From the NCBI GenBank assembly GCA_017960565.1, contig JAGCYY010000019.1:1-63954 (forward strand): a stretch of DNA of 63,954 nucleotides, given 5' to 3'. Below, in pieces: positions 6,019 to 42,716 of the stretch. The notes beneath the pieces are model-generated. The model was not told the origin of the DNA, made no database searches, and was given only the letters and a program-made list of their open reading frames with translations. Numbering within the stretch: position 1 is the first letter of the stretch; each line of letters starts with the position of its first letter. Both the position numbers and the translations under genes were made by a program. Source of the stretch: a bacterium (GTDB lineage Bacteria > Bacillota_I > Bacilli_A > Izemoplasmatales > UBA1188).

Positions 6019-6019
6019 A

Positions 6020-6463
6020 TTATTTGTCCTCCTTTTTATTAAGCAATTCTATAAAATACTCTTTTGATATCCATTTTTTGCGATATATTTCCTCATTTAT
6101 AGTAATTGTTTTTAAACTACCATTTAGATACATATCAAGTCTATACTTTAAACACTCGTCATCGAGTTGCATTATTTTCATTCCATATTGTCCTCGATGC
6201 TGATTATAATGTTTAATGGTTTCAAACATTGCCCAATATTTTTCAATAATTTCTTCATTTAAACGAGTGTTATGTTTTTTGCACTGTGAAATAAAATAAT
6301 CCTTATTAAACCATTTTTTACCGCTAGTTTTTTTGTATAAAAGCACATCATCAACAAAAATATAAAACCTTTTCATATCCAAAGGATGGCAACTTTCTGG
6401 ACTGCTTTTTATCCAAGACATAAAGTCTATTTCAATTGGATTAATTCTTCTTACCAAAATCAT
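6020..6463 (-). CDS. Hypothetical 147-aa protein wedged between fnlA and fnlC
   Basis: The ORF is packed with 4-nt and 1-nt gaps to its neighbours. I recognise no motif. The sequence is basic and Lys/Tyr-rich. Confidence 0.55.
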   Translation of the reverse strand: MILVRRINPIEIDFMSWIKSSPESCHPLDMKRFYIFVDDVLLYKKTSGKKWFNKDYFISQCKKHNTRLNEEIIEKYWAMFETIKHYNQHRGQYGMKIMQLDDECLKYRLDMYLNGSLKTITINEEIYRKKWISKEYFIELLNKKEDK

Positions 6464-6467
6464 AAAA

Positions 6468-7670: not shown

Positions 7671-7678
7671 AATAAAAA

Positions 7679-7700
7679 CCTCCGAAACGTATTCCGGAGG
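7679..7700 (-). promoter_or_regulatory. Hairpin that pairs the fnlA RBS (GGAGG) with an upstream CCUCC
   Basis: The minus strand reads CCTCCG-gaatacgttt-CGGAGG followed by TTTTTATT and the ATG. The 3' stem arm is the only Shine-Dalgarno for fnlA. Confidence 0.5.
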
Positions 7701-7851
7701 TATTATAATATAAATATGCAATAATTGCAAGTTATATTTTATATAAACAACAATATTATGAATTTATAGTGATAATTATAAGCAATTTTAGCAATTATTT
7801 TTTGATATTAATAAAATATAGTCTTTTGAAGCTGAATAAATATAATTGATA

Positions 7852-8424
7852 TTATACCAACGATAAACAATACTCTACAAATTCATCCATATTTGTACTA
7901 TTAACAAGTTCAAGTTTCTTTTTAAATAATTCAATTTCATTGTATGAATTCATTGACAATATACCTTTATTGATTGGAAACGCTTTAAAATAATATGTCC
8001 CTTTAATATTATCTTTAATCATTGTTGTCATTATTTTTGCCTTATGTAAGACATTTTCAAGTTTTGGAGAATTATAGATGGGATAAATATAGTCATACAA
8101 TGGGTGTGCTTTAAACATTGATTTATCCAAAAAACTATTTTTTTCTTTCTCTGTGCAATCATCAGTATCCATTATAATAAATAATTTAAAATTTACTAGT
8201 TTCTTGTTTTTATATTCAATACCACATCTATCAGCAAACGTTTTTAGTGATTTAAATTGTTTAATAAAATTTAATACACTTGTTATTTGTATCGAGCTTT
8301 GCCCTTTATTATTCGAAAAAATTTCTAATTTCAAATGAAGATTTGATTTTATATATGATACTATACGACGTTCAGAAAGCCCATGGCATATAACGGCACA
8401 CCTGCAATATTTTAGATCTCTCAT
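7852..8424 (-). CDS. Divergent TOPRIM/RloB-like small partner protein (190 aa)
   Basis: N-terminal CAVICHGLSERRIVSYIK sits where RloB/OLD TOPRIMs have EGxTE. FIIMDTDDC is a DxD-type acidic motif. The start lies 1 nt after the ATPase stop. Confidence 0.5.
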   Translation of the reverse strand: MRDLKYCRCAVICHGLSERRIVSYIKSNLHLKLEIFSNNKGQSSIQITSVLNFIKQFKSLKTFADRCGIEYKNKKLVNFKLFIIMDTDDCTEKEKNSFLDKSMFKAHPLYDYIYPIYNSPKLENVLHKAKIMTTMIKDNIKGTYYFKAFPINKGILSMNSYNEIELFKKKLELVNSTNMDEFVEYCLSLV

Positions 8425-8425
8425 A

Positions 8426-9760
8426 TTATGTGTCTATGTTTACCTTTTTTAAGTTTTCGATAATTTCATTATAATCAACATATTGCACAAAAGGAATTCC
8501 GCCAAACAAACCTTTCATATATCTTAATCGAGCGCTATTAGAATCTTGCAACTTATATTCAGATAAACAAACAATCTCTTTAAATCCATCATAATTTCCA
8601 TTTATAATGTAAACATATTTAGCATCCAACGATTCCAATAGGCTAGTATTATGTGTTGTAAAAATCAACTGACCAGTAATATAATCTTTCATTGAATCTA
8701 TAACAACCTTTAATAGCAAATCATGTATTCCATTATCAACTTCATCAATTATAATAGTACAGCCACAAAAGGCGCCAAACAAATATCTTAATATTTCTAA
8801 TATTTTTCTAGTTCCTGTAGATTCATTCTCAACAGGTATTTTTCTAATTTTGCCATTGATATACTTGTTAAATAAGAGTTTATACTTTATTCTCTTATCA
8901 TCTATTTTTTCTGCAAATTCAACTTTTTTTATATCCGAATAAGTTTGTATGAAAAAATCATTTAATATTTTCTCTGTGTTTAAAAGCAACCATTTGTTTT
9001 CTTTATCTATTGATCCGGATTCTAAGTCAAAAAGGAAATTGATTTTCTTGCATGAATCGACTCTAGAAATACCATCACCACTCTTAATCATAATAGATGT
9101 TTCGCTTATCATGTTATGAAAATCATATAGATAGTTAGATATATTTTCCTGTATATAATCATTGTTCAAATTATTAAGCATATCATAAACAATAGAAATG
9201 AGTGAATGTTTTCCCCAATACTTCAATATTCTATCAATAACCTCTGATATAATCTTATTACTCTTAAAAACCTGAGTTGATAATTTAGGATTCTTTATAT
9301 CTTCGCTTGATATTTCGAAAACAGTGCCACTTTGTTTACCGGTAAAATAATATAATTTTTCATATACTATAACATCATTATATTCAATTATATAGCTACC
9401 TTCATGACCATTAACTTCAAAACCATATTCGAGTCTAGAATTATCCTCACATTGAATTGTTCTTGAACTCTTGAACAAATTAGAAAGTGTTTGTTCATTC
9501 ATGTATCTAATCAAAATTGGTGGCACTTCTCTATTTTCTTGTTCTTCTAAAAATCTAAGAAATCTAACCTCTCTTTTTTCTAAATCAAATGTATGTATTA
9601 GATTCTGCAAAAAATAAAAAGAACGAATTAAAGTTGATTTACCACATCCGTTTTCGCCATAAATTACAGCTATTTTTTTTATTTTGTCCCTGGTTTCCTT
9701 TAAATCAAATGTAACATTATTTAATGAAAGGAAATTGTTCAATTTTACATATGTAAACAT
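8426..9760 (-). CDS. AAA_21-type ABC ATPase (AbiLi/RloA-like), 444 aa
   Basis: Walker A YGENGCGKSTLI. ESTGTRKILEIL signature-like motif. TIIIDEVDNGIHD Walker B. LIFTTHNTSLL H-loop. C-terminal RYMKGLFGGIP is typical of this family. Confidence 0.8.
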   Translation of the reverse strand: MFTYVKLNNFLSLNNVTFDLKETRDKIKKIAVIYGENGCGKSTLIRSFYFLQNLIHTFDLEKREVRFLRFLEEQENREVPPILIRYMNEQTLSNLFKSSRTIQCEDNSRLEYGFEVNGHEGSYIIEYNDVIVYEKLYYFTGKQSGTVFEISSEDIKNPKLSTQVFKSNKIISEVIDRILKYWGKHSLISIVYDMLNNLNNDYIQENISNYLYDFHNMISETSIMIKSGDGISRVDSCKKINFLFDLESGSIDKENKWLLLNTEKILNDFFIQTYSDIKKVEFAEKIDDKRIKYKLLFNKYINGKIRKIPVENESTGTRKILEILRYLFGAFCGCTIIIDEVDNGIHDLLLKVVIDSMKDYITGQLIFTTHNTSLLESLDAKYVYIINGNYDGFKEIVCLSEYKLQDSNSARLRYMKGLFGGIPFVQYVDYNEIIENLKKVNIDT

Positions 9761-9786
9761 TTCATAGCCCTCCTAATCTCACATAT

Positions 9787-9815
9787 ATTTTAATATTTTT
9801 ATACACTTTAGTCAA
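9787..9815 (-). promoter_or_regulatory. Sigma-A-type promoter of the 8426..9760 ATPase pair
   Basis: Minus strand: TTGACT (9810..9815), a 17-nt spacer, TAAAAT (9787..9792), then an AGGAGGG RBS before the ATG at 9760. Confidence 0.55.
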
Positions 9816-9971
9816 TAACTTTGTTGTTTTTAATATATTTTATAGATATTTTGTGAATCTTTTGCTTTAATATCACTATATCTTTACAAAGTGTTAATAA
9901 AGTGATTATATTATTAATTGTTTTATATTTTCTAAAAACGCTTTCATTATATGATTATTATAACCACTACA

Positions 9972-10000
9972 ACAAAAAAAGGAGAACTTATGAGTTCTCC
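9972..10000 (-). terminator. Rho-independent terminator after the ugd fragment
   Basis: GGAGAACT-tatg-AGTTCTCC perfect 8-bp stem (9981..10000), followed on the minus strand by a T7 run (9974..9980). Confidence 0.7.
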
Positions 10001-10022
10001 ACATTTTATATGTTTTTAACAT

Positions 10023-10403
10023 TTAGTCTCTTCTAAATAAATCTCTTGTGTATGTTTTATTTTCTACATCATCTAATGAACTATCATATCTATTAGCTAT
10101 AATAGCATTTGATAGTTTTTTAAATTCATCTAGGTTATTTATTACTTTACTACCAAAGAATTCGCTACCATCTTCTAATGTTGGTTCATATATAATAACA
10201 TTTACACCTTTAGCTTTAATTCTCTTCATTATTCCTTGAATAGATGATTGTCTAAAGTTATCACTATTAGATTTCATTGTGAGTCTATAGATTCCAACTG
10301 TAATTCTATTAGCTTTAGTTTCATTAAAGCCAGCTATTTCTAATACTCTATAAGAAATAAAGTCTTTTCTTGTTCTATTGGATTCAATAGTAGTAGATAA
10401 CAC
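10023..10403 (-). pseudogene. ugd: C-terminal 126-codon fragment of a second, diverged UDP-glucose 6-dehydrogenase allele
   Basis: ..[72 protein letters not shown] aligns with the last ~125 aa of 13336..14538, with roughly 70 % identity by eye. The N-terminal two-thirds of the gene are absent. Confidence 0.85.
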
Positions 10404-10452
10404 ATTATTTATTTCTTTGTTGATTGTTTATACTATCAATAAACGATGAAAA

Positions 10453-12870
10453 TCATTTATTTATATTGCTCATAATTCCAATTAACTCTTTTGCTGCATC
10501 ATCACTTATTTCTGAAAAAATTCCCTTTTTGACATTTTTTAGTTGTCTTTCAGAAATATGTTCCGGATCAATTTTTTTATAAATTATACCTCTAAGTGCG
10601 GAAAGTTTATCATCGTTTGGAGAACATAATAATCCGTAATTGCAAACTTCTAATGCTTCATCATACTTGCCTAATTCCATTAAATACTTAGCATGTGCGT
10701 CAGATGTACGTCCGTTTTTGTAAAGATTATTTTTATCGTTTTGCTGATAATATGCTTTTTTAAAATGAAAAATAATCTCATCGCTTAGTGAAACAATCTC
10801 ATTTTTGTTATGATAAAAACGAGTAAGTGCAACCGCCAATCCAAAGTGATAATTTTGAAAATCACGAATGGAAAGAGCTCTTTTAAAATAGTCTATAGCT
10901 ACATCATTTTTCTTAATGTATGACAAGTAAAATGCATATTCAGCAATATAATAATCATTATCTTGATCGAGCTTTATTGCGCTTTCATAATCATTTCTTA
11001 TCTCGGTGACGTTGTCATCAGCTTTATTTTCTAATTCCGCTTTAAAAAAATATAAGTATGCAAAATTTGGAATTTCATTTATTAATTTTATTATTTCTTC
11101 TTTGATGTCTACATAATTGAACTCAGCATCAAATTTCCTTCTTAATTCTCTTGTTGCCAAATAAGCTTTTTTTCGTTCAAAATCAAATGCTTTGACTCTA
11201 TTAAATAAACTGATTTCATAAGAACTAATTTGTGTTTTTGTTTTAGACCATTCATAATAATTATTACTGATGTTTTCCTTGCCTTTTAAATCAATGTCTT
11301 TCATTTGTTTATTTACAAAAACTTTAACGAGAGGCTGACATGTATAGTTTTGATTTACTTGTGAACAAAAAGAACAAGTAAATAAATTTATCATTGCATT
11401 ATTTATATCGCTGTCATCAACTTTCAAAATATAACGTAAATCAGCAATAGAAAATTCTTCTCCACTAATGTCAGAAATAGACATAACAAACAAAATCTTT
11501 TTTTCTAGAATGCTTAAATTATCAAAAGTACTTTTGAAACAAAACTTCATAACAGAATCGTAATATGAGTTATTCTTTTTCATATTACGAAGAGTATTTA
11601 CAATTGCTTCTACGTTTCCACCATTAGATATTTTATATACTATAAGATTTATCAATATTGGAGAACCATGAACCAGTTCAATTAAATCATTCAAATACTT
11701 GTTTATATGAGATAGCAATTCTTTCTTTCTAGATAATGCATATTCATCAAGACAATTACTAACATACTGAAAGAATTGTGTCTTATCAAAGCCAACTAAA
11801 TCAATTCTTTTATAAGTATCTGTCATACTTGTTCTAGTAGTAAAAATAATTCTACAATTTAATGGTATTTCTCTAGTAAATTTTAAAATATCTTCGTTAG
11901 TAATTGTTTCCATATTGTCCATAACAATTATAGAATTATATTTTAACAATTTATCTAAAATATCATTTTTTAAATCGTTTTCATCCTTCCCAAAAGTATC
12001 TATTGATAATACATCTGTAAATGTTTCAATCATTTCGCTAAAAGATAGTTCAGATTCTCTTAAGGGTGCTATGTATCCTGTCGATGAAAAAGTATCAAGT
12101 TTTCCAGTTATCCAAATAACGTACTTTATTTGAATATTTAGTTTTATTTCACCACTACATATCCTATCACAAAAATTTCTAACGAAGGATGTTTTCCCGA
12201 TGCCACCCAAACCATTGATTTGAGCGCATCTTATTCTATCGTTGTTTAACGAATCTAAAAGGATTTCTAAATCATTTTTTCTATCTATATATGTTTTATA
12301 TGGAGGAGCAATTTTATTAAGATTTGTAATTATTGACATATTTGAAGCTCTTAAAGAAAAGAAACTTTTGTCATCATTTACACGACATGAACTAGATTTA
12401 ATACGACCATATATATCGTCTTTAGAAAAAACATGTTTTAGTTCTTTCGTCCCATTTGCTTTTGTTCGATAGTATTCTCCATCTTTTGTGAAGACAATCG
12501 GATTGTCTTCTTTTTTATCAATTGTTAGGAGAACAAAAATATCATTATCTAGTTCATATTTACCTATTTGAAAATTAGGAACACAATCGACATATTTTTT
12601 AATGAATGGAACAATGTAGCTATCATCGGCATTTTCTATAGTTGATCTACTATCCAGGCCAATCCAATCACAATCCCTATCGGTTACTCCAAAAATAATG
12701 TATCCTCCTTCGGTGTTTGCAAAAGAAACAATATCCTTTGTTAATTCTAATTTTTCTCTTGTTTCATCAAACTTAAAACATTCTTTGTAATCAATATTTT
12801 CGCTTTCCGCATTTACTTGTTGGTTCTTTATTCTTTGTAATACTTCCTTTGAGTTTTTAAAGTCAGGCAT
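10453..12870 (-). CDS. STAND NTPase with N-terminal AlbA_2/Schlafen-like domain and C-terminal TPR-like repeats (Avs/bNACHT-like antiviral candidate), about 805 aa
   Basis: N-terminal ESENIDYKECF..IVSFANTEGGYIIFGVTD (AlbA_2 signature). P-loop INGLGGIGKTSF. Walker B IIVMDNMETI. The C-terminal ~250 aa contain repeated Y/A/L helical pairs (AIKLDQDNDYYIAEYAFYLSYIKKNDVAIDYFKRAL.., AHAKYLMELGKYDEALEVCNYGLL). The start is set at the ATG at 12870, which has an AGAGGA RBS. The stop is TGA. Confidence 0.75.
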   Translation of the reverse strand: MPDFKNSKEVLQRIKNQQVNAESENIDYKECFKFDETREKLELTKDIVSFANTEGGYIIFGVTDRDCDWIGLDSRSTIENADDSYIVPFIKKYVDCVPNFQIGKYELDNDIFVLLTIDKKEDNPIVFTKDGEYYRTKANGTKELKHVFSKDDIYGRIKSSSCRVNDDKSFFSLRASNMSIITNLNKIAPPYKTYIDRKNDLEILLDSLNNDRIRCAQINGLGGIGKTSFVRNFCDRICSGEIKLNIQIKYVIWITGKLDTFSSTGYIAPLRESELSFSEMIETFTDVLSIDTFGKDENDLKNDILDKLLKYNSIIVMDNMETITNEDILKFTREIPLNCRIIFTTRTSMTDTYKRIDLVGFDKTQFFQYVSNCLDEYALSRKKELLSHINKYLNDLIELVHGSPILINLIVYKISNGGNVEAIVNTLRNMKKNNSYYDSVMKFCFKSTFDNLSILEKKILFVMSISDISGEEFSIADLRYILKVDDSDINNAMINLFTCSFCSQVNQNYTCQPLVKVFVNKQMKDIDLKGKENISNNYYEWSKTKTQISSYEISLFNRVKAFDFERKKAYLATRELRRKFDAEFNYVDIKEEIIKLINEIPNFAYLYFFKAELENKADDNVTEIRNDYESAIKLDQDNDYYIAEYAFYLSYIKKNDVAIDYFKRALSIRDFQNYHFGLAVALTRFYHNKNEIVSLSDEIIFHFKKAYYQQNDKNNLYKNGRTSDAHAKYLMELGKYDEALEVCNYGLLCSPNDDKLSALRGIIYKKIDPEHISERQLKNVKKGIFSEISDDAAKELIGIMSNINK

Positions 12871-12892
12871 ATTTTTCCTCTTTTTATGTAAA

Positions 12893-12900
12893 ATTATACA
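12893..12900 (-). promoter_or_regulatory. Extended -10 element (TGTATAAT) upstream of the STAND gene
   Basis: The minus strand reads gcTGTATAATttta about 22 nt upstream of the ATG at 12870. I found no good -35. Confidence 0.35.
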
Positions 12901-12977
12901 GCTTTTTAAAATGAGATTTTTACGCATAATTATTTGTAATAACGTTTTTATATAGATCAAACAAGAAATTAGATTTT

Positions 12978-13310
12978 TCATCTATTTCCATACATCTTTT
13001 CGTAGTATTCTTTATAATTACCACTAGTACATTCTTTCATCCAATCCATATGGTTTTTATACCATTTTATTGTTAGTTTAATGTCATCTTTAAACATTGT
13101 AGTTGGTTTCCATCCAAGTTCTTTCATTGCTTTGGATGGATCGATAGCGTATCTTAAATTGTGTCCTTTTCTATCAGTTACATATATTATCAAACTTTCT
13201 GGTTTATTTAATTCTTTTAATATTATTTTAACTATTTCTATATAGCTTTTTCGTTATGACCACCTAGATTATATACTTCTCCTACTTTTCCTTTTTCTAG
13301 TACAGCAAGT
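12978..13310 (-). pseudogene. rfbB: 3' fragment of a dTDP-glucose 4,6-dehydratase gene, copy 2 (frameshifted)
   Basis: Reads [23 protein letters not shown] and then, after a 1-nt shift, ..IIYVTDRKGHNLRYAIDPSKAMKELGWKPTTMFKDDIKLTIKWYKNHMDWMKECTSGNYKEYYEKMYGNR*. It is truncated at the same ..gtacagcaagt breakpoint as copy 1. Confidence 0.85.
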
Positions 13311-15304: not shown

Positions 15305-16491
15305 AATTTTACTCCATCATGAGGATGACAGATATGAGCACTATATTTTCCTTTAAGGTTTGGAAAGGCTTTTAGATACTCTTCTTCTACATTTTTTAGT
15401 ATTTCATCTTCAAACTTTGGATCTGCAAGAGCCATTACACATCCTTTAAAGCCAGCACCTGAGAATCTACCACCATAGATTCCTTTTGTTTTAGTCATTA
15501 TTTCATATAGTTTTATTAGTTCAGGAGATCCCGTTTCCCAGTTTTCTATAGACGATTTTCCACTAGCAAATGATAATCTTCCAAATTCTTCTATATCACC
15601 ATTTCTCCAAGCAAGAGCACCTTTTTCTACTCTCATAAATTCTGTATACCAGTGCTCGGCTCTTTTTCTGAAGTTATCTGGTAGGTTATCTTTATATTTA
15701 AGATATATTTCATATGAAACATCTCGTAAATTTGTTTCTTCAAATTTACCATAATCCATATTTGCGTATGCTTTAAGTGCATACGCTGCACTTCTACATT
15801 CATCTACTCTCATATTGAATTTAGAAGATGATAGTGATCTTTCTATTCCAGAGAAAAATATTATTATCTCAAATGGTTTCATATTCTTTGGTGTAGTTAT
15901 TATTTCATAACTATCATCTTTTAAATCCATATAAAGTAGTCCATCTTTTTTTGCATATATTTCACATGATTGGTCTAGTTTACCACAAGATACACCAACA
16001 TAGTTATTTTCAGCTTCTTTGGCTATTTCAATCATTTTAGATGGTTCTAACTTTATATTATTAAGTTTACATAATGCATTTAAGAATGTGATAATTACAG
16101 CAGCTGATGATGAGAGACCTCCTATTGGTAGTTCTCCATCAATAATAGCACATAAACCTATTCTAAGAGGATAATAAGAAGCAAGTGTTATGGTTGCACC
16201 TCTTAAGTAGTCAGCCCAATCGTTTTGCTTTTTAACTGGAGTTGAGAGGATGTGCCACTGTGCTCTTTTTGGAAACTGCATACTCCTTATTTCTATTACA
16301 CCATTTTGTTTTGCAGAATATGCAATATAGATGCCTTTATCTAAAGCAAAACCAGTTATTTTCCCTAACTGGTGATCAGAGTGAGCTCCAAGAGGGCAAA
16401 TTCTATAAGGAGTAAATTCGATGTTTTCTGGATTTCTCTTATATGTCTTTAAAAATGCTTCTTCTGCAGAGGTTTTAGTAATATTATTCAT
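15301..16491 (-). CDS. GHMP-family sugar 1-kinase (galactokinase/galacturonokinase-like)
   Basis: PYRICPLGAHSDHQLG replaces the GalK signature GRVNLIGEHTDY. GHMP motif II is PIGGLSSSAAV. C-terminal GGRFSGAGFKGC is also present. Confidence 0.75.
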   Translation of the reverse strand: MNNITKTSAEEAFLKTYKRNPENIEFTPYRICPLGAHSDHQLGKITGFALDKGIYIAYSAKQNGVIEIRSMQFPKRAQWHILSTPVKKQNDWADYLRGATITLASYYPLRIGLCAIIDGELPIGGLSSSAAVIITFLNALCKLNNIKLEPSKMIEIAKEAENNYVGVSCGKLDQSCEIYAKKDGLLYMDLKDDSYEIITTPKNMKPFEIIIFFSGIERSLSSSKFNMRVDECRSAAYALKAYANMDYGKFEETNLRDVSYEIYLKYKDNLPDNFRKRAEHWYTEFMRVEKGALAWRNGDIEEFGRLSFASGKSSIENWETGSPELIKLYEIMTKTKGIYGGRFSGAGFKGCVMALADPKFEDEILKNVEEEYLKAFPNLKGKYSAHICHPHDGVKL

Positions 16492-17548
16492 TGTTTTTAT
16501 TTCCTAAAATATAATAGTCATAATACCATTCTGAAAATTTCCTAAGACCTTGTCTTAGAGAAGTTGAAGGTTTAAATTCAAAATCTTTTTCTAGTTCAGA
16601 TGTATCAGCATATGTTGCTGGTACGTCACCAGGTTGCATTGGTACTAGTTTTTTATGTGCTTCAAAATCAAAATCTTTTGGTAATACTTTGGCTCTTATT
16701 AATTCTTCTGATAGAATCTGAACAAAATCTAATAGATTCTCTGGGTTATTGTTACCTATATTATAAATTTTATATGGAGGTAATGGTAATCCATCTTCTC
16801 CTGTTTTTTTAATAGGAGGCTTTTCCATTACTCTTACTATTCCTTCTACTATATCATCTATATAGGTAAAATCTCTTTTACAATTGCCATAGTTAAATAT
16901 TTCTATGGTTTCACCTTTTATTAGTTTATTGGTGAAACCAAAGTAAGCCATATCAGGCCTACCCATTGGTCCGTATACAGTAAAGAATCTTAGTCCTGTA
17001 GATGGTATATTATATAGTTTACTATATGCATGAGCTAGAAGCTCATTAGACTTCTTTGTCGCAGCATATAAACTTACTGGATTATCTACTTTATCATCTG
17101 TAGAAAATGGTATTTTCTTATTGCCACCATATACGGATGAACTTGATGCATATACTAGGTGTTCTACAGGGTGATTACGACAAGCTTCTAGTATATTATA
17201 GAATCCTATTATATTAGAATTAATATAAGCATCGGGATTAGTAATAGAATATCTAACGCCAGCTTGAGCAGCCAAATTCACTACGATGTCGAAATGGTAT
17301 TGTCGGAACAAGGATTCCAATAATGGCTTATCTGCCAAGTCGCCTTTTATGAATTTGTATGTGTTTTTGGTTTTTATTTGGCTCAGTTGATCAAGGCGGT
17401 ACTCTTTCAAAGAGACATCATAGTAATCGTTATTGTTATCGAACCCAATCAAGGTGCAATTCTCCGCCTCAATCAGAAGTCTTTTCATAAGATTGCTGCC
17501 TATGAATCCACTCGAGCCAGTTATTAATATTGTTTTGTTTTGGAACAT
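16484..17548 (-). CDS. UDP-glucuronate 4-epimerase-type NAD-dependent epimerase
   Basis: ILITGSSGFIGSNL, ASSSSVYG and YAATKKSNELLAHAY (YxxxK) motifs. It lies in context with ugd. The start is set at the MFQNK ATG at 17548. Confidence 0.8.
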   Translation of the reverse strand: MFQNKTILITGSSGFIGSNLMKRLLIEAENCTLIGFDNNNDYYDVSLKEYRLDQLSQIKTKNTYKFIKGDLADKPLLESLFRQYHFDIVVNLAAQAGVRYSITNPDAYINSNIIGFYNILEACRNHPVEHLVYASSSSVYGGNKKIPFSTDDKVDNPVSLYAATKKSNELLAHAYSKLYNIPSTGLRFFTVYGPMGRPDMAYFGFTNKLIKGETIEIFNYGNCKRDFTYIDDIVEGIVRVMEKPPIKKTGEDGLPLPPYKIYNIGNNNPENLLDFVQILSEELIRAKVLPKDFDFEAHKKLVPMQPGDVPATYADTSELEKDFEFKPSTSLRQGLRKFSEWYYDYYILGNKNNE

Positions 17549-17549
17549 T

Positions 17550-18716
17550 TTATTTCCTGCCCTCTGCTTTTTCCTTTTCTTCAAGTTCACGAAGTTTCAT
17601 TTCTTCATAATAATCATCGTCAAAATCATCTGGATATGATTCCTCTTCTCTTACATAATCACTATCCGTAAGTGAAATTTCATTATTCGTTATTCTAGGA
17701 TTATTAATTTCTAACTTTCCGCTTTTATATTCATATTCTGCTTCAACAATCAAAAGGCCGTTTGTTTTATAGTGAATAGTACTATAAACGCTTGGGACAA
17801 AAACATATTCCTTTTCTTCGGAATCCCAGCATCCGTTATCATAATCTCTATAATTCACATCCTGACACGATTCGATATGGTAAAGAATGGCAACCACAAT
17901 TGACTTGGCGTCCTTATCCTTTCTAATTATCAATGCTTTATCCAATTCCATTGATAAAATATTAGAATTGGTAACTTCGATATCATAATAAGAATACCTA
18001 AAAGAAGAGAGTTGCTCGCTAAAGTCTTTTTCAATATCGTTGTCGAACATTGAATTGAAATTGGCTTTAAAATAGCTTTCGCACTCTTCATTATCTTTCC
18101 CTGTAATAGAAGCCAACATGGACAATATGTGCTCATGAGATTTTGAAAAAACAATATTGCTGTTTTTGACAACTTCTTCATCATCTGTGATAATCACGCC
18201 TCCTCTTAACATCGTATGAGAAAGCCAATCGTTGTCATTTGAAAGAATAAAAAGTTTGTTATCTTTTGAATAATTAATTATGGAATCAATCGCAAAGGCA
18301 TCAGGAAATTCATTTTTCTTGTCTTTCGATTCAAATGCGCCAACCCCACTAAAATAATCACTGAAAACAGAATCTGCATTAACGCCGTTTAAATCGATAG
18401 CGATTATCCCAAATTTCTCCTTAAAACCATCAAATTTGTTCAAGGCTATTCTCGACAAAAAATTCAAGTCAAGCTTATTGGAGAATGTTCCGTCATTCGC
18501 CAGGCACCTAACACGAGAAGCACATTTATTAATAGTGCTGGCAGAATCTCTTGTCTGTTCCAATAAATGTCTTTCTATTTCTTTATCAACAATGCTGCTA
18601 ATAACAATTTTCACAGTTCCATTTAAAATATATTCTTCGAGATATTTAAAAAAATTGTTATCAAAATTAAAGCAAGTACTAACTATGTACGATGTGTCAA
18701 ATGTTAAATATATCAA
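17550..18716 (-). CDS. PIN-like (DUF4935-type) domain protein with uncharacterised C-terminal domain and acidic tail, 388 aa
   Basis: N-terminal IYLTFDTSYIV..GTVKIVISSIVDKEIERH.. and ..EFPDAFAIDSIINYSKDNKLFILSNDNDW resemble the acidic-residue pattern of PIN-like DUF4935. TTG start with a strong GGAAGGTGA RBS. The stop lies 1 nt from the epimerase ATG. Confidence 0.6.
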   Translation of the reverse strand: MIYLTFDTSYIVSTCFNFDNNFFKYLEEYILNGTVKIVISSIVDKEIERHLLEQTRDSASTINKCASRVRCLANDGTFSNKLDLNFLSRIALNKFDGFKEKFGIIAIDLNGVNADSVFSDYFSGVGAFESKDKKNEFPDAFAIDSIINYSKDNKLFILSNDNDWLSHTMLRGGVIITDDEEVVKNSNIVFSKSHEHILSMLASITGKDNEECESYFKANFNSMFDNDIEKDFSEQLSSFRYSYYDIEVTNSNILSMELDKALIIRKDKDAKSIVVAILYHIESCQDVNYRDYDNGCWDSEEKEYVFVPSVYSTIHYKTNGLLIVEAEYEYKSGKLEINNPRITNNEISLTDSDYVREEESYPDDFDDDYYEEMKLRELEEKEKAEGRK

Positions 18717-18747
18717 AGTTAATCACCTTCCTTTTATCATCTAATAA

Positions 18748-19494
18748 TCAATTCTTAAATACGCTATCTTTTCCCGCTGCACTAGCGATAAACGCATGGT
18801 TATTGTCAACAATTGCAGGCCATGTAGGAAACTTCCTGCCCCAATCATTCAGCATAAATTTTAATTGAGAAGGAATCCTTAAGGTTTCAAATAAGTCGTT
18901 TCCAAAAGGCAATTTCTGTTTATCGCAAAGAATAAAAGCGAACGGGAAAAAGTAAAAGCTGGACAGCATCCCTTCTGGCATAGGATCATTTATCCCAAAA
19001 ACCATAGGAACATAATTCTTCAATATGAAAATACTATTTTGATAAGGATAGAAACAAACCAAAAGACTGTATTTATCGAGCAGTTTCTCATTCTTATCAA
19101 AGTAATAATCTCTCATCGCCCTTGCCGGCAGCGATGAATCAAATTCAGACGCGGCAAGCAGATGACCTACCACCGCCTTGATAACATTGTTCAAGTCAAA
19201 TCCTTTTTCAGGTTTGCGACCATTAATAGCGTCTATAACAAACTGCCTAAATGCACCTAAGTCCTCGTCATACTTTCCACCAAGTCCATTGTTGCATTCA
19301 CTACAAATTGTTTGAAACTTGATTCCGTTCTGTGAGTGCTTGCGTTTAGTCATCCTCAAACCGTTGCCAAGATATTCTGGAGTGAAAGAGATATAATAGG
19401 ATTCACCGTTATTTCCGCAACACTTAGGTGGGATATGGTCATAACTTAATTGCTTTCTTTGACCACAAATTGCACATTTCCCTGTTTTTGGCAT
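18748..19494 (-). CDS. HNH/Zn-ribbon nuclease-like protein, 248 aa
   Basis: GKCAICGQRKQLSYDHIPPKCCGN ... TICSECNNGLGG (CxxC..DH..CxxCN arrangement of beta-beta-alpha-Me nucleases). The ATG at 19494 lies 1 nt after the upstream stop. Confidence 0.6.
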   Translation of the reverse strand: MPKTGKCAICGQRKQLSYDHIPPKCCGNNGESYYISFTPEYLGNGLRMTKRKHSQNGIKFQTICSECNNGLGGKYDEDLGAFRQFVIDAINGRKPEKGFDLNNVIKAVVGHLLAASEFDSSLPARAMRDYYFDKNEKLLDKYSLLVCFYPYQNSIFILKNYVPMVFGINDPMPEGMLSSFYFFPFAFILCDKQKLPFGNDLFETLRIPSQLKFMLNDWGRKFPTWPAIVDNNHAFIASAAGKDSVFKN

Positions 19495-19495
19495 A

Positions 19496-19993
19496 TTACT
19501 CGCCCTCGAAATCACCGATAAGCCTTGCTGTATTAGGATTTAATTTAAGAATGAATCTAATTAGTACGCCTGCGAACGTCTCGCAAAAATCAAACTCCAA
19601 CTGCTTATTAGTCCACTCATCGATACCATAATATCTCCACTCAACGAATGTGTTAGAAATGGCATCGATCTTTTTTGAAATATTATCCTTATCAATTTCC
19701 AAGATTTTACTTAATGCGGTTTCTAAAAATAGTTTTATCTCTTCTGGTAAAGAATCATATAATGTCTTGATATTGTGGGTCTTCTCAAAATCTATGCTGT
19801 TCTGACTAAGCAGTTCCTTTAGGGACAATTCTATTGAAAGACAAGAATTCACGGAACTAGGTATTGACTGAAACATGAAATGATCAACAAGGTTTTCGGA
19901 TAATTGTTGGTCATTCCTAATAATCAATCCACTTTTGTAAAAGGAATAACTACTAATAATTGTGAGTGATAGTCTTTCGGGCGGTATCTTCAT
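19496..19993 (-). CDS. HEPN-like domain ORF (165 aa), possibly the C-terminal remainder of a disrupted larger gene
   Basis: SIELSLKELLSQNSIDFEKTHNIKTLYDSLPEE ... ISNTFVEWRYYG resembles the classic HEPN pattern (helix-LK, tHdL..L, ..RY). It is in the same frame as 20015..20122 upstream, separated only by TAG-CCA-TAG plus 4 codons. Confidence 0.5.
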   Translation of the reverse strand: MKIPPERLSLTIISSYSFYKSGLIIRNDQQLSENLVDHFMFQSIPSSVNSCLSIELSLKELLSQNSIDFEKTHNIKTLYDSLPEEIKLFLETALSKILEIDKDNISKKIDAISNTFVEWRYYGIDEWTNKQLEFDFCETFAGVLIRFILKLNPNTARLIGDFEGE

Positions 19994-20014
19994 TATTAAC
20001 CTTCGCTATGGCTA

Positions 20015-20122
20015 ATCATTTTCTTTCTTTGTTTTTAATATCGCTTTGAAATCCTCGGCCCTGGTACGGAGTATGAAATGCAAATCAAAACCATTGCCAA
20101 TTACATAAAGTTTTCTGTTCAA
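20015..20122 (-). pseudogene. 36-codon N-terminal piece with AbiH-like motif, in frame with the HEPN-like ORF
   Basis: An AGGTG RBS sits 7 nt from a TTG start. The reading (M)NRKLYVIGNGFDLHFILRTRAEDFKAILKTKKEND then meets TAG CCA TAG. LYxIGNGFDL..L.T.Y.DF is, as I remember it, the N-terminal signature of AbiH-family proteins. Confidence 0.45.
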
Positions 20123-20334
20123 TGTTAAACACCTACATTTTAAAAATATCTAAATTATCAAACATCCAAACTCCACCACCATTCGACCATCAGCTTGTCA
20201 TAACAAAAAGCATTTAGTATTATCTGCTATTGACTTGCTAACTTTTCCGTTTATAGCTAATGAATATGTGCCAAGGCAAAAACAATTAGTCAAAAATGAA
20301 AGACTAGTCCCATCTTGACGCGATGATGGCTTTT

Positions 20335-21437
20335 TTATTTTATTGAAGAGATAAATTCCAACGCCTTTTCGATAACTTTATCCATATCGTTATACTTATA
20401 TTGGCCAAGCCTTCCACCGAAATGAACATTTACTAATTTATTGGCTTCTTTCTTATACTTTTCGTAAAGCGAATTATTCTTATCATTGTTCACTGGATAA
20501 TACGGTTCATCTCCTACCATCCAAGTGGAAGAATACTCTCTTGAAATAATGGTCTTAGGAGAAGTTGAATCAAACTCGAAATGCTTATGTTCAATGATAC
20601 GTGTATAAGGAATCTCATATTCGGTATAGTTCACTACTGCATTACCTTGATAATTAGGAATATCTATGGTTTCAATTTCAAATCTGACTGAACGATATTC
20701 AAATGGTCCGTATTTTTAATCGAAGAATTGATCGATTGGACTGGTATAGACAATTTCTTTAGCCTCTTTTAATAACTCTTCTTTATGTTCAAAGAAGTCA
20801 TAATTTAGTTTAACTTCTATACCCTCTCACATCTTTTCAATAATTTTGGTATAACCCCCAATTGGGATACCATGATATCTATCGTTAAAGTAATTGTTAT
20901 CATATATAAATCTTACTGGTAATCTCTTGATAATGAAGGCCGGAAGTTCTGCACATGGTCTACCCCGTTGTTTTGCTGTATAGCCTTTAATGAGTTTTTC
21001 ATAGATTGTTGGACCCACTAAATTAATCGCTTGTTCTTCTAAGTTCTTCGGTTCATCAAAATGATAAGCTTTCTTTTCTTCTTCAATTCTATTTTGGCTT
21101 GTTCTGGGGCGAAGACATCATTCCATAATTTGGAAAATGTATTCATATTGAAAGGAGGATTATAAAGTTCATTTTTATATCTAGCGACTGGGAAGATAAT
21201 GTAGTTATTAAACTCGGCGAATTGATTGATACATTCCCAAACTTGTTTATTGGAGGTATGGAAGATATGGGCTCCATAAACATGGGCATTAATACCATCT
21301 TCATTTTTAGCATAAATGTGACCTGCAATATGATTTCTTTTATCAATCACTAGGCATTTAAAACCTCTTTTATTCAATTCGTATGCGCATATCGCACCAT
21401 AAAGGCCCGATCCAACTATCAGATAATCGTATTTCAC
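20335..21437 (-). pseudogene. glf: UDP-galactopyranose mutase gene, inactivated
   Basis: The N-terminus MKYDYLIVGSGLYGAICAYEL.. is intact. A frameshift in gaagaagaaaagaaagc (~21060-21080) breaks the frame. In-frame TGA follows ..TKIIEKM (20824..20826) and in-frame TAA sits at ..DQFFD*KYGPFEY (~20717). The conserved KQWG reads KQRG. Confidence 0.9.
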
Positions 21438-36917: not shown

Positions 36918-37475
36918 TTAGTTAGTGGTATCGATTTTTTCGGCGATAAAATCGATACCTAAATCTGTATCAACTAATCTTCCCATAAACTCTAGCCGTA
37001 CTGTAACTCTACGTTTATGAAGATTGATATCTACGATCTTACCTTCTTGTCCCTTTAATGGTCCATCTACAACAACTATATCTCTTCCTTCTTTTAGATA
37101 GATATGAGATATCTCAATTGTTTTAGATGGATTATCTTTGCCAAGAAGAACATTTAACATTTCTTCTTCAGCTAATGTTAGTGGTGCAATAAAATTTTTA
37201 TGATCTTTATCTATTCCAAGAACCTTGGTTAAGGTTTTAACTTGGTATAGACTCTTTTTTAAATCGATGATGGTTATTTCATCAGTCTTTATAAAAATAT
37301 AACCGGGAAATAAAATATCTATTCTTTCTTTTTTTATGCCTTCTTTTTTGATAATCCTTTTTCTTTTCGGAACAAAAATATCGATTTCATCGACTAGCTT
37401 AACTAAATCTCTTTTGATCCTTTTTGCGGTTTCTTCTTCTTTAGATGAAAAAACTTGAATTACATAATATGGCAT
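36918..37475 (-). CDS. loaP: NusG paralog (LoaP-like specialised antiterminator)
   Basis: MPYYVIQVFSSKEEETAKRI..PGYIFIKTD (NGN domain) and VVVDGPLKGQEGKIVDINLHKRRVTV (KOW). It is embedded in a polysaccharide operon. Confidence 0.7.
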   Translation of the reverse strand: MPYYVIQVFSSKEEETAKRIKRDLVKLVDEIDIFVPKRKRIIKKEGIKKERIDILFPGYIFIKTDEITIIDLKKSLYQVKTLTKVLGIDKDHKNFIAPLTLAEEEMLNVLLGKDNPSKTIEISHIYLKEGRDIVVVDGPLKGQEGKIVDINLHKRRVTVRLEFMGRLVDTDLGIDFIAEKIDTTN

Positions 37476-37599: not shown

Positions 37600-39444
37600 T
37601 TAGAATTTGTAAGTTGGAACGAGTTCCTTTACAATTGGTTTAATTGAATCCGATTCTTTATAGGTTTCAATATATAATTTATCGAGTTCAGCAAAGAATG
37701 TTTCTTCGTTGAATTCGAGTGGATTAGCAATGTTAATTAAGCCATTAGCGGTAGTCTTTAAACCTTCTTCATCCATAAGACGTTCTTCATAAAGTTTTTC
37801 ACCTGGACGAAGACCAGTAATCTTTATTTGGATATCTTCATGAGGTTTAAAGCCTGAGAGTCTAATTAATGTTTCAGCAAGATCATAAATTCTTACAGGT
37901 TCACCCATATCAAGAACATATATCTCACCACTAGATGCATAAGCGCCAGCTTGCAGGACTAGGCTTACTGCCTCTGGTATAGTCATGAAATATCTTGTGA
38001 TATTCTTGTCTGTGACAGTTACTGGACCACCTTCTGCAATCTGTTTTTTAAAGAGTGGGATTACAGAACCATTTGAACCGAGAACGTTTCCGAATCTTAC
38101 GGCAACAAACTCGGTGTTGCATTTGCCTTTTGATAATTGTCTTCTACCGATTGCTTGAATTATCATTTCACAGATTCTCTTTGAAGCACCCATGATGTTT
38201 GTGGGGTTAACCGCTTTATCAGTTGAAATTTGAATAAAACGTTTCACATGATATTTTTCAGAAACTAGAGCTAGGTTTAATGTACCAAAGACATTGTTTT
38301 TGATGGCTTCATTTGGAGATGTTTCCATGAGTGGCACATGTTTATGTGCTGCAGCATTGAAAACAATATCGATGTTATATTTTTTAAATATATCTTCGAG
38401 TTTGCCTTTATCTCTGATAGAGGCTATTAAGACAAGAATGTTACAATAAGGCATTTTCCTTAGTAGTTCTTGTTGGATATCATAAGCATTGTTTTCATAG
38501 ATATCTAGAATAATTAGTTGTTTAGGATAGTGTGAAGCAATCTGACGACAGAGTTCAGATCCAATTGATCCACCACCACCAGTAACTAAAACAACTCTAT
38601 TTTCTATATAACCCATAATTTCATCTAGGTTGACTTTGATTTCACCACGACCGAGAAGATCGGAAATAGAAACGTGTCTTATTGATCTTATTGATACTGT
38701 TCCATCAACTAACTGGTAAAGACCAGGAATGATAGAAACTTTACAGTTTGTTTTTTCACAGATTTTAAGAAGAGCTTGTTGTTCTTTGCGAGAAATAGAT
38801 GGTACAGCAACTATTATTTCTTTTACATGGAATTTTTTAGCATTCTCTTGAATAGTTTCATTAGTGCCTACTACTGGTATACCTAAGATAGTTGTTCCAA
38901 CTTTTTGTGGATTATTATCAATTAAGCAAACAGGGTTTCTTTCAATCTTAGTTGTATTGAGGAGTTCTCTTAAGATTGTGGTACCAGCATCGCCAGCTCC
39001 AATAATCATTACGTTATTTTGATTTTCTTTTTGAGGGAATAATTCATTGTTTCTTATTTGAATGAATAATCTAACTGAGAACCTAATAAATGCAGTTAGA
39101 AGGAGCAGCACTAGAGATAGAATCGATATATATCGCATATTTATATATCTTGAGTTGGTAGCGATTACGAAGATACTCACAAAGATGAAATTTAAAAGAA
39201 TAGCAAATCCTATCTTTAGTAAATCGATTACTGATGTGTATTTAAGTGTGGCTTTATATAGCCCAGCTAATGCGAACATTGTGAGTATTAGCACACATTC
39301 GCTAGTTGAGAAGATAATATAAAAAAGGAGATATTCTTTTTCTAGTGGCTGAGAAAGTAAAAAGAAGCTGGCAAAGATGGATAGCATAATAACAAATATA
39401 TCAAATAGCCCCAATAAAAACTTTCTCCTGATGATACTAGGCAT
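37600..39444 (-). CDS. CapD/PglF-type membrane-anchored UDP-GlcNAc 4,6-dehydratase
   Basis: Four N-terminal TM segments, then VLVTGGGGSIGSEL, ..AAAHKHVPLME.. and ISTDKAVNPTNIMGASKR. Confidence 0.85.
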   Translation of the reverse strand: MPSIIRRKFLLGLFDIFVIMLSIFASFFLLSQPLEKEYLLFYIIFSTSECVLILTMFALAGLYKATLKYTSVIDLLKIGFAILLNFIFVSIFVIATNSRYINMRYISILSLVLLLLTAFIRFSVRLFIQIRNNELFPQKENQNNVMIIGAGDAGTTILRELLNTTKIERNPVCLIDNNPQKVGTTILGIPVVGTNETIQENAKKFHVKEIIVAVPSISRKEQQALLKICEKTNCKVSIIPGLYQLVDGTVSIRSIRHVSISDLLGRGEIKVNLDEIMGYIENRVVLVTGGGGSIGSELCRQIASHYPKQLIILDIYENNAYDIQQELLRKMPYCNILVLIASIRDKGKLEDIFKKYNIDIVFNAAAHKHVPLMETSPNEAIKNNVFGTLNLALVSEKYHVKRFIQISTDKAVNPTNIMGASKRICEMIIQAIGRRQLSKGKCNTEFVAVRFGNVLGSNGSVIPLFKKQIAEGGPVTVTDKNITRYFMTIPEAVSLVLQAGAYASSGEIYVLDMGEPVRIYDLAETLIRLSGFKPHEDIQIKITGLRPGEKLYEERLMDEEGLKTTANGLINIANPLEFNEETFFAELDKLYIETYKESDSIKPIVKELVPTYKF

Positions 39445-41388: not shown

Positions 41389-42609
41389 ATGAATATTCAC
41401 GAAAAGAAATACGAATTGATAAAATTTGAAGATGGAGATTTTAGTTTAGATGTAAATGTATCACCTGAAGAGGAAACTGTATGGTTAACACAAAAAGATA
41501 TGGCATTATTATTTAATGTTTCAATTGACAATATCAGTCTACATATTAAAAATATAATAAAAGACGGTGAATTAGATCAATCAGTATTCGAGGAATCCTC
41601 GATAACTGCTTCTGATGGAAAGAAATATAAAACAAAAATGTATAATCTAGATATGATAATATCTGTCGGTTATCGTGTCAAATCAAGACGTGGAATAATA
41701 TTTAGGAATTGGGCTAATTCAATTTTAAATAATAATAGAGTAATTGATGATTATAGTATTCAAAATATGGCTAAATTTAGCGGAAAATATGAATTAGTTA
41801 AATTTAAGGACGGGGATTTTAGTTTAGATGTAAGTGTATCTCCTATGGAGGATACTGTATGGTTAACACAAGAACAAATAGCAGAATTATTTCAAAAATC
41901 TAGAAGCACAATAACTGAGCACATAACCAATATATTTTCAACTAATGAATTAAATGAAAATACTTCCGTCGGAATTTCCGACATAAGTGGAAGTCATAGA
42001 CCAAACAAGTTATACAATTTAGATGTAATACTTGCCGTAGGATATAGAGTTAATTCTAAAAGAGGTATTGCTTTTAGGCGCTGGGCAACAGATACATTAA
42101 AACAATATTTATTAAATGGTTATGCAATTAATGCTGAAAGAATTATGGCATATCAGTCTAATATATTACAATTAGAAGCTAATGTAATTAATATAGAAAA
42201 TAGATTAAAGAATTTAGAGATGACTATATATTCTGATAATACTCAAATCATATTTGAAGGCGAAATATTAGAACCATATACTTTCTTAAGAAAATTATTC
42301 TTTTTATCAAGAAATGAAATAACTATAATTGATCAATATGCTGATAAATTCTTATTAACAATGTTATCCGATTTAAAGGTTAAAATAACTATTGTTACTT
42401 CTACTTCATCTTATTTAAACAAAGAAATAATACCTAATAATATAACAATTCTTCATAATGATATTATTCATGATAGATTCATCGTTATTGATGATTTAGT
42501 ATATGCGATAGGTTCTTCTTTTAATGATATTGGTAAGAAGAGATTTTTTATGATGAAATTAGAAAATATAACAAAAGATATGATATTAAAGGGAAGAAAA
42601 AAGGATTGA
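41389..42609 (+). CDS. RhuM-family protein with tandemly duplicated N-terminal module
   Basis: Module 1 is YELIKFEDGDFSLDVNVSPEEETVWLTQKDMALLF..MYNLDMIISVGYRVKSRRGIIFRNWA. Module 2 is YELVKFKDGDFSLDVSVSPMEDTVWLTQEQIAELF..LYNLDVILAVGYRVNSKRGIAFRRWA. The C-terminal IIDQYADKFLL..IHDRFIVIDDLVYAIGSSFNDIGKKRFFMMKL is the usual RhuM tail. Confidence 0.8.
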   Translation: MNIHEKKYELIKFEDGDFSLDVNVSPEEETVWLTQKDMALLFNVSIDNISLHIKNIIKDGELDQSVFEESSITASDGKKYKTKMYNLDMIISVGYRVKSRRGIIFRNWANSILNNNRVIDDYSIQNMAKFSGKYELVKFKDGDFSLDVSVSPMEDTVWLTQEQIAELFQKSRSTITEHITNIFSTNELNENTSVGISDISGSHRPNKLYNLDVILAVGYRVNSKRGIAFRRWATDTLKQYLLNGYAINAERIMAYQSNILQLEANVINIENRLKNLEMTIYSDNTQIIFEGEILEPYTFLRKLFFLSRNEITIIDQYADKFLLTMLSDLKVKITIVTSTSSYLNKEIIPNNITILHNDIIHDRFIVIDDLVYAIGSSFNDIGKKRFFMMKLENITKDMILKGRKKD

Positions 42610-42639: not shown

Positions 42640-42716
42640 TGGTAGCCTGTACCGGATTCGAACCGGCGAATGCCGCCTTGAGAGGGCGGTGAGTTAAGCC
42701 ACTTCTCCAACAGGCC
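42640..42716 (-). tRNA. tRNA-Glu (anticodon CUC)
   Basis: 77-nt cloverleaf. Acceptor GGCCUGU/ACAGGCU (G1:U72). Anticodon stem CCGCC/GGCGG with loop CU-CUC-AA. T arm GCCGG-UUCGAAU-CCGGU. CCA is encoded. The D arm is nearly identical to tRNA-Glu(UUC) at 63315..63390. Confidence 0.8.

Follow-up and report, generated by a model that had tools for sequence, protein, structure and literature searches.

Do three nuclease-type genes that lie side by side in a capsule locus form one defence system, or have they gathered there independently? The question is raised by contig JAGCYY010000019.1 (GenBank assembly GCA_017960565.1), from a bacterium of the order Izemoplasmatales, which was analysed over its whole length of 63,954 nt (the window). 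It carries a polysaccharide locus of roughly 26 kb on the minus strand, running from ~39.4 kb to 13.3 kb. Within this locus, a 2.8-kb block is bounded by the last fragment of a decayed glf gene (stop at 20335) and by the ATG of an SDR epimerase gene (17548), and encodes, also on the minus strand, a HEPN protein, an HNH protein and a PIN_12 protein (the family formerly called DUF4935). A preliminary description made from the sequence alone proposed that AbiH/HEPN, HNH and PIN_12 constitute a single new three-nuclease defence or abortive-infection system. The present analysis shows that the block is modular, and it is probably an islet of independently mobile nuclease genes in a capsule operon rather than one three-component machine.

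Evidence for this modularity comes from a 1,370-bp segment, here called the cassette, which comprises an N-terminal AbiH remnant (the stub), the HEPN gene and the HNH gene. This segment is 96.3% identical to one found in six other contigs (L006-L011), where it occupies a different polysaccharide locus, with a cytidylyltransferase gene before it and a small HTH_26 gene, not PIN_12, after it. The boundaries of the cassette are sharp, since the homology extends from the first codons of the stub to 4 nt past the HNH stop and excludes PIN_12. Its GC content is 36.5% (38.6% for the HNH gene) against a window mean of 30.9%, which places it in the top 1.4% of windows of the same size. The right flank of the cassette in the L006-L011 host has a GC content of 46-52%, and this difference from the window, combined with the 96.3% identity, points to a recent transfer between distant, very different hosts. 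The block had been described as more GC-rich than its flanks; this is correct for the cassette but not for the block as a whole (34.4%, top 9%), where PIN_12 with 32.4% resembles its neighbours.

The complementary arrangement is present in contig L001, in a third polysaccharide locus. There, a gene for a 54%-identical PIN_12 protein follows directly behind a matching leader without the cassette, and the gene after it encodes a different SDR enzyme, 28% identical to the window epimerase. With 81% identity over 69 nt, the leader exceeds the gene behind it in conservation; it has no match in Rfam, and its fold z-score of -0.94 is not significant. In the window, the leader and PIN_12 are separated by the cassette. 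Thus, one module would consist of PIN_12 and its leader, and the second, the cassette with its dead AbiH stub, would now lie between the two parts of the first.

The HEPN, HNH and PIN_12 genes occur together only in contigs of this strain, which come from several samples (eight contigs read, four places shown), and the trio in conserved order was not found in any other lineage in all collections searched. A single three-nuclease system, as originally proposed, would fit the tight coupling of the three open reading frames (ORFs), their intact catalytic-type residues and the stability of the arrangement in this strain across samples. However, the cassette and PIN_12 occur apart from each other, the homologues of each gene are mostly found alone or with other partners, the AbiH part is only a stub, and the co-occurrence elsewhere that was to be expected of such a system is missing. 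We consider this model hardly credible and advise against listing the block as a new defence system of several genes. The three genes are additions to established nuclease superfamilies and lie in defence-type settings; their novelty is modest, and each is a candidate stand-alone defence or addiction gene.

The gene order and every spacing given in the preliminary description proved to be exact. The HEPN/HNH junction reads TAA-T-ATG, leaving a gap of 1 nt, and the Shine-Dalgarno sequence of the HNH gene is located within the 3' end of the HEPN gene. The 31-nt gap between HNH and PIN_12 contains AAGGAAGGTGA ahead of the PIN_12 start, and the junction of PIN_12 with the epimerase gene reads TAA-A-ATG, again with 1 nt between stop and start (AAATAAAATG). 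These 1-nt and 31-nt gaps support the tight gene coupling that had been noted. For the HNH protein, homologues back the ATG start, which gives 248 aa, and do not support a GTG start giving 255 aa. Directly upstream of the block, glf has broken up into three ORFs (132, 63 and 99 aa). The identical three-way split is present in contigs from several samples (eight read, four places shown), so that the decay reported earlier is real and an assembly error is excluded. The earlier view that the block is foreign to glycan synthesis is also supported. The coordinates of these features are given in Table 1.

Table 1. Features of the nuclease block and its immediate surroundings (window positions)
Feature	Coordinates	Strand	Size and evidence
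HEPN gene	19993..19496	minus	165 aa; ORF list and PF05168
HNH gene	19494..18748	minus	248 aa from ATG; ORF list and HNH motifs
PIN_12 (formerly DUF4935) gene	18716..17550	minus	388 aa, TTG start; ORF list and PF16289
AbiH N-terminal remnant	20122..20012	minus	36 codons, TTG start; partial AbiH profile match
Mobile cassette (AbiH stub, HEPN and HNH)	20113..18744	minus	1,370 bp; 96.3% identity to L006-L011
Conserved leader	20240..20174	minus	81% identity over 69 nt to L001:4-71
Decayed glf (UDP-galactopyranose mutase)	20335..21437	minus	Three ORFs; Pfam GLF and NAD_binding_8 on fragments
SDR epimerase gene	16484..17548	minus	Epimerase and GDP_Man_Dehyd Pfam matches; ATG at 17548

An imperfect 14-nt direct repeat (12/14) lies near the ends of the cassette (20116..20129 and 18695..18708), with one copy 3 nt outside the left boundary and the other 36 nt past the right boundary, inside the first PIN_12 codons. 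The repeat is too weak to be called a target duplication. By inspection, the regions of the ribosome-binding site and start codon of the AbiH stub (~20134..20119) and of PIN_12 (~18728..18713) are alike (AGGTGnTTAACnTTGA), and the flanking similarity could represent junction microhomology or chance.

The preliminary description had read the HEPN frame as continuing upstream into an AbiH-like N-terminus. The LYVIGNGFDLH piece is in fact a separate ORF of 36 codons, ended by a TAG with a second TAG 3 nt beyond; it shares its frame with the HEPN ORF, and both TAG codons intervene. An AbiH-HEPN fusion gene is ruled out, and HEPN is seen to be a gene complete in itself, by these two in-frame stops, by the conservation of the HEPN start in AbiH-free homologues and by the fast divergence of the stub. 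The piece covers positions 1-30 of 260 in the Pfam AbiH profile (PF14253; 30.4 bits against a cut-off of 30.9) and positions 2-32 of 343 in the PADLOC AbiH model, and neither Pfam nor PADLOC profiles revealed a full-length AbiH domain in an open frame in the block. It has the hallmark N-terminal motif of AbiH, the single-gene abortive infection protein of Lactococcus. However, since only 36 codons remain, no AbiH function is possible, and the stub is part of the HEPN-HNH cassette rather than of the PIN_12 module. It is kept in the L006-L011 copy, where it is ended by an earlier TAA. Between the two copies of the cassette, the stub has diverged by 13.3%, HEPN by 3.6% and HNH by 2.3%, which indicates that the stub drifts while HEPN and HNH are held by selection. 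Thus, the AbiH piece is a dead remnant that forms the 5' end of the mobile cassette.

With a stub at one end and a glf pseudogene in three pieces next to it, the whole block might be seen as decaying cargo without current function in a degenerating stretch of the capsule locus. The ratio of nonsynonymous to synonymous substitution rates (dN/dS) of the HEPN gene relative to L006, which is 0.49 from only 18 substitutions, would agree with such decay. Nevertheless, all three ORFs are full length compared with their homologues and keep the conserved residues, their divergence is four- to six-fold below that of the dead stub beside them, and the HNH gene is under purifying selection with a dN/dS of 0.17 (few substitutions). 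A block without any function is therefore very improbable, and we return to an islet of separately mobile, maintained genes.

The HEPN protein matches PF05168 with 24.9 bits (cut-off 22, E 2.5e-5, residues 53-133); a 56%-identical homologue scores 18.9 bits on the same profile, under the cut-off. The canonical Rx4-6H motif of catalytic HEPN RNases is absent from the protein: R120 leads into YYGIDEW, and no His stands 4-6 residues on. Residues E55, K59, H73, R120 and Y121 are conserved among 26 family members. Exhaustive HMMER searches yielded 305 representatives at E ≤ 0.001. All 150 among the matches listed are 103-223 aa long and none of these 150 is a fusion ('Rosetta stone') protein, and no relatives were found in the metagenome_contigs collection or IMG/VR. 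Judging from these sequences, the family appears to consist of small stand-alone proteins and to be non-canonical. The 56%-identical homologue (L012) keeps the N-terminus (MKIP..) and the length of the HEPN protein downstream of a DUF4365 gene, with no AbiH. What lies upstream differs from context to context: the AbiH stub in the window, a DUF4365 gene in L012 and, in L242, an unknown protein of 276 aa together with DUF4145, with a PycTM gene adjoining. A small PF05168-type protein in a tight bicistronic arrangement is reminiscent of HEPN-MNT type II/VII toxin-antitoxin systems, but the block protein lacks Rx4-6H, and no nucleotidyltransferase partner lies beside the HEPN gene in the window, L006-L011, L012 or L242. 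A modulating or accompanying role with respect to its neighbour is conceivable, and of the three proteins HEPN is the one whose role is least certain.

The HNH protein scores 26.2 bits on HNH_5 (PF14279), just under the cut-off of 27.5, and several of its homologues have a precomputed PF14279 match. Residues D19, H20, N56, C64, C67, N68, D76 and R128 are invariant in 20 sequences, down to 27% identity, and C7, C10 and H111 are kept by 90% or more of them. The catalytic D-H, the Asn and the CCCC zinc residues are thus conserved, and the HNH active-site and zinc signature is present. Together with the HEPN match and the clear PIN_12 match described below, this upholds the nuclease-type domains named in the preliminary description, with the correction that AbiH is reduced to a stub. 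The CCCC-zinc HNH motif occupies the N-terminus of the protein, and an alpha/beta domain without a fold match makes up its C-terminal part. In the region where HNH endonucleases have their beta-beta-alpha-metal fold, its AlphaFold2 model (pLDDT 90, pTM 0.90) shows strands at residues 13-20, 52-55 and 59-64, followed by a helix at 65-90. Foldseek searches with this model gave no match at E ≤ 0.001 in PDB or BFVD and returned no HNH structure, and a sequence-profile search of PDB gave no relative of the HNH, HEPN or PIN_12 family. The protein matches phrog_21495 (function unknown) with an E-value of 7e-13.

The HNH family has 63 full-length members in 36 lineages, among which no neighbour is conserved, and more distant members are present on 46 IMG/VR contigs and 72 plasmids, 46 of them conjugative. 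The neighbours at the IMG/VR loci are frequently on the opposite strand (30/45 downstream, 23/45 upstream). An all-against-all comparison of neighbours at 21 genome loci across many phyla revealed no recurring partner, with the exception of a near-identical pair of HNH and a 398-aa protein in 'Bacilli' and Muribaculaceae metagenome-assembled genomes. In this pair (L025, L026, L028 and L029; ~5880-8030 of the 12-kb loci), the 398-aa protein, for which Pfam, PADLOC and NCBIfam gave no match, comes after an HNH relative of 310-315 aa. Between genomes labelled 'uncultured Bacilli' and Muribaculaceae, the pair shows 87-97% identity, and these sequences suggest a recent cross-phylum transfer of a possible two-gene unit.

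Elsewhere, relatives of the HNH protein keep company with restriction and defence genes. The gene is located behind HsdM-HsdS, HsdR..HsdS, an MmeI-like enzyme, a GIY-YIG gene or the gene of a small nucleotidyltransferase, and it precedes a STAND NTPase at one locus. At some loci it closes a type I or MmeI restriction operon, and it is likewise the final gene behind a DdmD-like helicase, a KAP NTPase or PDC-M42. Relatives with 63-67% identity either are preceded by a 580-aa KAP-type P-loop NTPase with a PADLOC PDC-S49 match or follow PDC-M42A/B genes, the latter carried on an integrative element. In an Anaeroplasmataceae metagenome-assembled genome (L018/L021, 967-6843), a DdmD-like helicase (1,114 aa; PADLOC DdmD, E 1e-38) and a 567-aa protein without match are followed by an HNH relative, whose gene overlaps that of the 567-aa protein by 17 nt; RNase III-like, NYN, NUDIX and HD genes lie downstream. 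This arrangement may represent a DdmDE-like variant. The two-gene layout of P-loop NTPase and HNH also recalls Septu (PtuA ATPase with PtuB HNH), but a Septu-like reading of these relatives was rejected, since the ATPase matches PDC-S49/KAP and not PtuA and a PtuB match is missing. None of the block proteins has a PtuA or PtuB match in PADLOC, the block contains no ATPase, and one relative has a weak PtuB match (E 0.005).

These contexts also bear on the possibility that HEPN and HNH form a genuine two-gene system, toxin-antitoxin-like or of a sensor-effector type, in which HEPN gates or neutralises HNH and PIN_12 is independent. The gap of a single nucleotide with the Shine-Dalgarno sequence inside the upstream gene, the movement of the two as a unit between hosts of ~31% and 46-52% GC, and the constraint on both after AbiH had been destroyed would all be expected of such a pair, and each of three HEPN relatives examined lies directly downstream of another gene. 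The pairing has been seen in a single cassette lineage only, however. HNH relatives with 63-67% identity are paired with the KAP NTPase or follow the PDC-M42 genes, the E. coli HNH relative stands alone, HEPN relatives at 56% and 41% identity have no adjoining HNH, and fusions are absent among the 150 listed HEPN representatives. A two-gene system is accordingly unlikely, and HEPN and HNH are better read as genes that share a vehicle within the islet.

The E. coli relative of the HNH protein, WP_000161640.1, has 29% identity to it, keeps the CxxC, DH, NG, CxxCN and GHxL motifs, and occurs in 141 of the 5,426 complete genomes of this species. The identical protein is encoded, each time alone, between the tail sheath and tail fibre genes of the P2-like phage pro147 (on the opposite strand), in a lambdoid prophage between hokD and replication genes, in an integrase-flanked island, and beside IS26 on an IncFIB plasmid. 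No mention of this protein was found in the literature searched. In phage P2, the Z/fun phage-exclusion gene lies between FI and G, and the Z-region is one of three sites of horizontally acquired genes in P2-like phages (PMC3091744). The E. coli relative thus occupies, alone and on the opposite strand, the sheath-fibre slot of Z/fun and other single-gene exclusion 'morons' of the Z-region; the likeness is one of the slot, and the window copy lies in a capsule operon, not in a prophage.

McrA of E. coli is an HNH type IV restriction endonuclease encoded by prophage e14. Like McrA, the HNH protein is a single protein of ~250-280 aa with an HNH and a second domain but no cognate methylase, of a kind carried as cargo of prophages and mobile elements and found near restriction loci. 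In contrast to McrA, the window protein has its HNH motif at the N-terminus (reversed domain order), and it matches neither the McrA binding domain nor any protein in PDB. The occurrence of a lone HNH nuclease without cognate methylase beside type I and MmeI loci and in prophages is circumstantial evidence for a type IV restriction reading. On its own, the HNH protein would act as a metal-dependent DNA endonuclease, with the C-terminal domain choosing or gating the target, and would resemble the single-gene exclusion or type IV-like restriction genes of prophages and plasmids.

A more far-reaching proposal is that the family (phrog_21495; WP_000161640.1) represents a new, widespread single-gene anti-phage nuclease with a C-terminal target-sensing domain without known fold, which recruited a small non-canonical HEPN partner here, with capsule loci of these gut bacteria serving as integration hotspots that tie nucleases to transcription of the capsule operon; we put this forward tentatively, as an idea that is possible but rather doubtful in its full form. 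Alternatively, the HNH gene might not be directed against phages, but encode a selfish endonuclease of the homing type or serve the capsule locus as a stabilising addiction gene. Its mobility across phyla and types of mobile element, its insertion right at gene boundaries and the identical alleles in unrelated mobile elements are all compatible with selfishness, but it shows no association with a fixed target gene, is found in slots known for accessory or exclusion genes and at restriction-operon ends, and has no recognisable DNA-binding modules typical of homing enzymes, which makes a purely selfish or addictive role quite improbable. The likeness to classic single-gene defence cargo of prophages and plasmids (the P2 Z/fun slot, E. 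coli genomes, plasmids) makes the family easily testable in E. coli. It is an uncharacterised family, absent from PADLOC and NCBIfam and without a solved or a predicted viral structural relative.

The PIN_12 protein clearly belongs to PF16289 (72.2 bits, cut-off 32, E 9e-20, profile positions 2-172 of 172). Residues E46, D139, D161 and D298 are invariant in the family, and D7 is conserved in at least 90% of the sequences. A VapC-like PIN domain is followed by a beta-rich C-terminal domain of ~200 aa with a conserved WDSE.KEY motif and by an acidic tail. In the AlphaFold2 model (pLDDT 82), the best PIN-like fold match is a weak one to VapC (4xgr_A, E 0.029, TM 0.57 on target), and the long-stranded C-terminal sheet gives only weak BPI/JHBP-like Foldseek matches. 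The protein shares the PIN acidic residues with the VapC-type PIN toxins and the DUF4935 family of Matelska et al. 2017, but it has no antitoxin gene, carries the extra 200-aa beta-rich domain and is embedded in a sugar operon. By itself, it would function as a VapC-like nuclease.

DUF4935 genes, whose function is unknown, are reported to be monocistronic as a rule (PMC5499597). The neighbour counts obtained here for 146 PIN_12 ORFs from metagenomes and IMG/VR agree with this remark, with tight same-strand neighbours in 26/128 cases downstream and 25/132 upstream. Across 144 PIN_12 loci, no family besides AbiH recurs as a tight same-strand neighbour. Some PIN_12 relatives are on a mobilisable integrative element or directly behind a prophage integrase. 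In one subclade, PIN_12 is followed after a single nucleotide by an intact AbiH gene. This pair is carried by conjugative plasmids of Shewanella, Salmonella, E. coli and Shigella (for example L094:4971-6591, L096:3971-6032 and L097:3971-6032) and is present in 11 of the 146 PIN_12 loci. On pTB-nb3, the annotated AbiH is only 172 aa long, with an IS2 transposase gene after it, and is probably truncated. In the window, the AbiH stub travels with the HEPN-HNH cassette and lies upstream of PIN_12, so the plasmid-borne pair is a lead rather than a link. This recurrent operon offers a handle on two families of unknown mechanism.

Searches of defence and phage databases gave little. PADLOC-DB v2 returned zero families for HEPN and PIN_12 and only a chance-level Cas8b match for HNH, and HNH relatives matched no PADLOC model below E 0.001. 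No NCBIfam model matches any of the three proteins, and phrog_21495 was the only PHROGs match among them. A role in defence is suggested by the relatives of all three genes, which have defence-type surroundings.

Several observations weigh against an islet of independent defence genes. HEPN and HNH adjoin each other and have travelled together, which leaves room for a functional pairing. The window contains both PIN_12 and an AbiH stub, and PIN_12-AbiH is a real operon on gammaproteobacterial plasmids, so that some older link between the modules is possible. The association with defence is qualitative, including the PADLOC and Pfam scans of HNH neighbours, which had no control set, and there was no matched control for neighbourhood enrichment. 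In addition, no protein of the block matched any PADLOC model, none of the three families is known to have been the subject of experimental work, and the cassette may have been transferred in either direction, into this lineage or from it.

Between 16.3 and 21.6 kb, promoter and terminator signals did not exceed the expectation from shuffled sequences. Read-through of the capsule operon is therefore the most likely mode by which the block genes would be expressed. A NusG/KOW paralogue (36918..37475, minus strand) is encoded near the head of the polysaccharide locus. It may be an operon-specific antiterminator, which would explain the expression of promoterless inserts. This gene adjoins a CapD-like Polysacc_synt_2 gene (37600..39444).

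Five polysaccharide-gene neighbourhoods on gut and ruminant-gut metagenome contigs (L001, L002, L006-L011, L012 and the window) differ from one another in their nuclease-type insert, which is PIN_12, KAP NTPase with HNH, HEPN with HNH and HTH, DUF4365 with HEPN, or the present trio. The presence of different nuclease-type genes in several such loci suggests that polysaccharide loci may act as hotspots for defence-like cargo.

Other genes of note flank the polysaccharide locus in the window. Just past its 3' end, an 842-aa SLFN_AlbA_2 and NB-ARC STAND NTPase is encoded at 10453..12981 (minus strand), followed on the same strand by an AAA_21 ATPase (8426..9760) and a 190-aa ORF (7852..8424), and together the features at 7852..12981 look like a defence islet. 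On the other side, a RhuM-family gene (41389..42609, plus strand) adjoins tRNA-Glu (42640..42716) and lies between the polysaccharide locus and a gene for a class I tRNA synthetase of the Glu/Gln family (tRNA-synt_1c).

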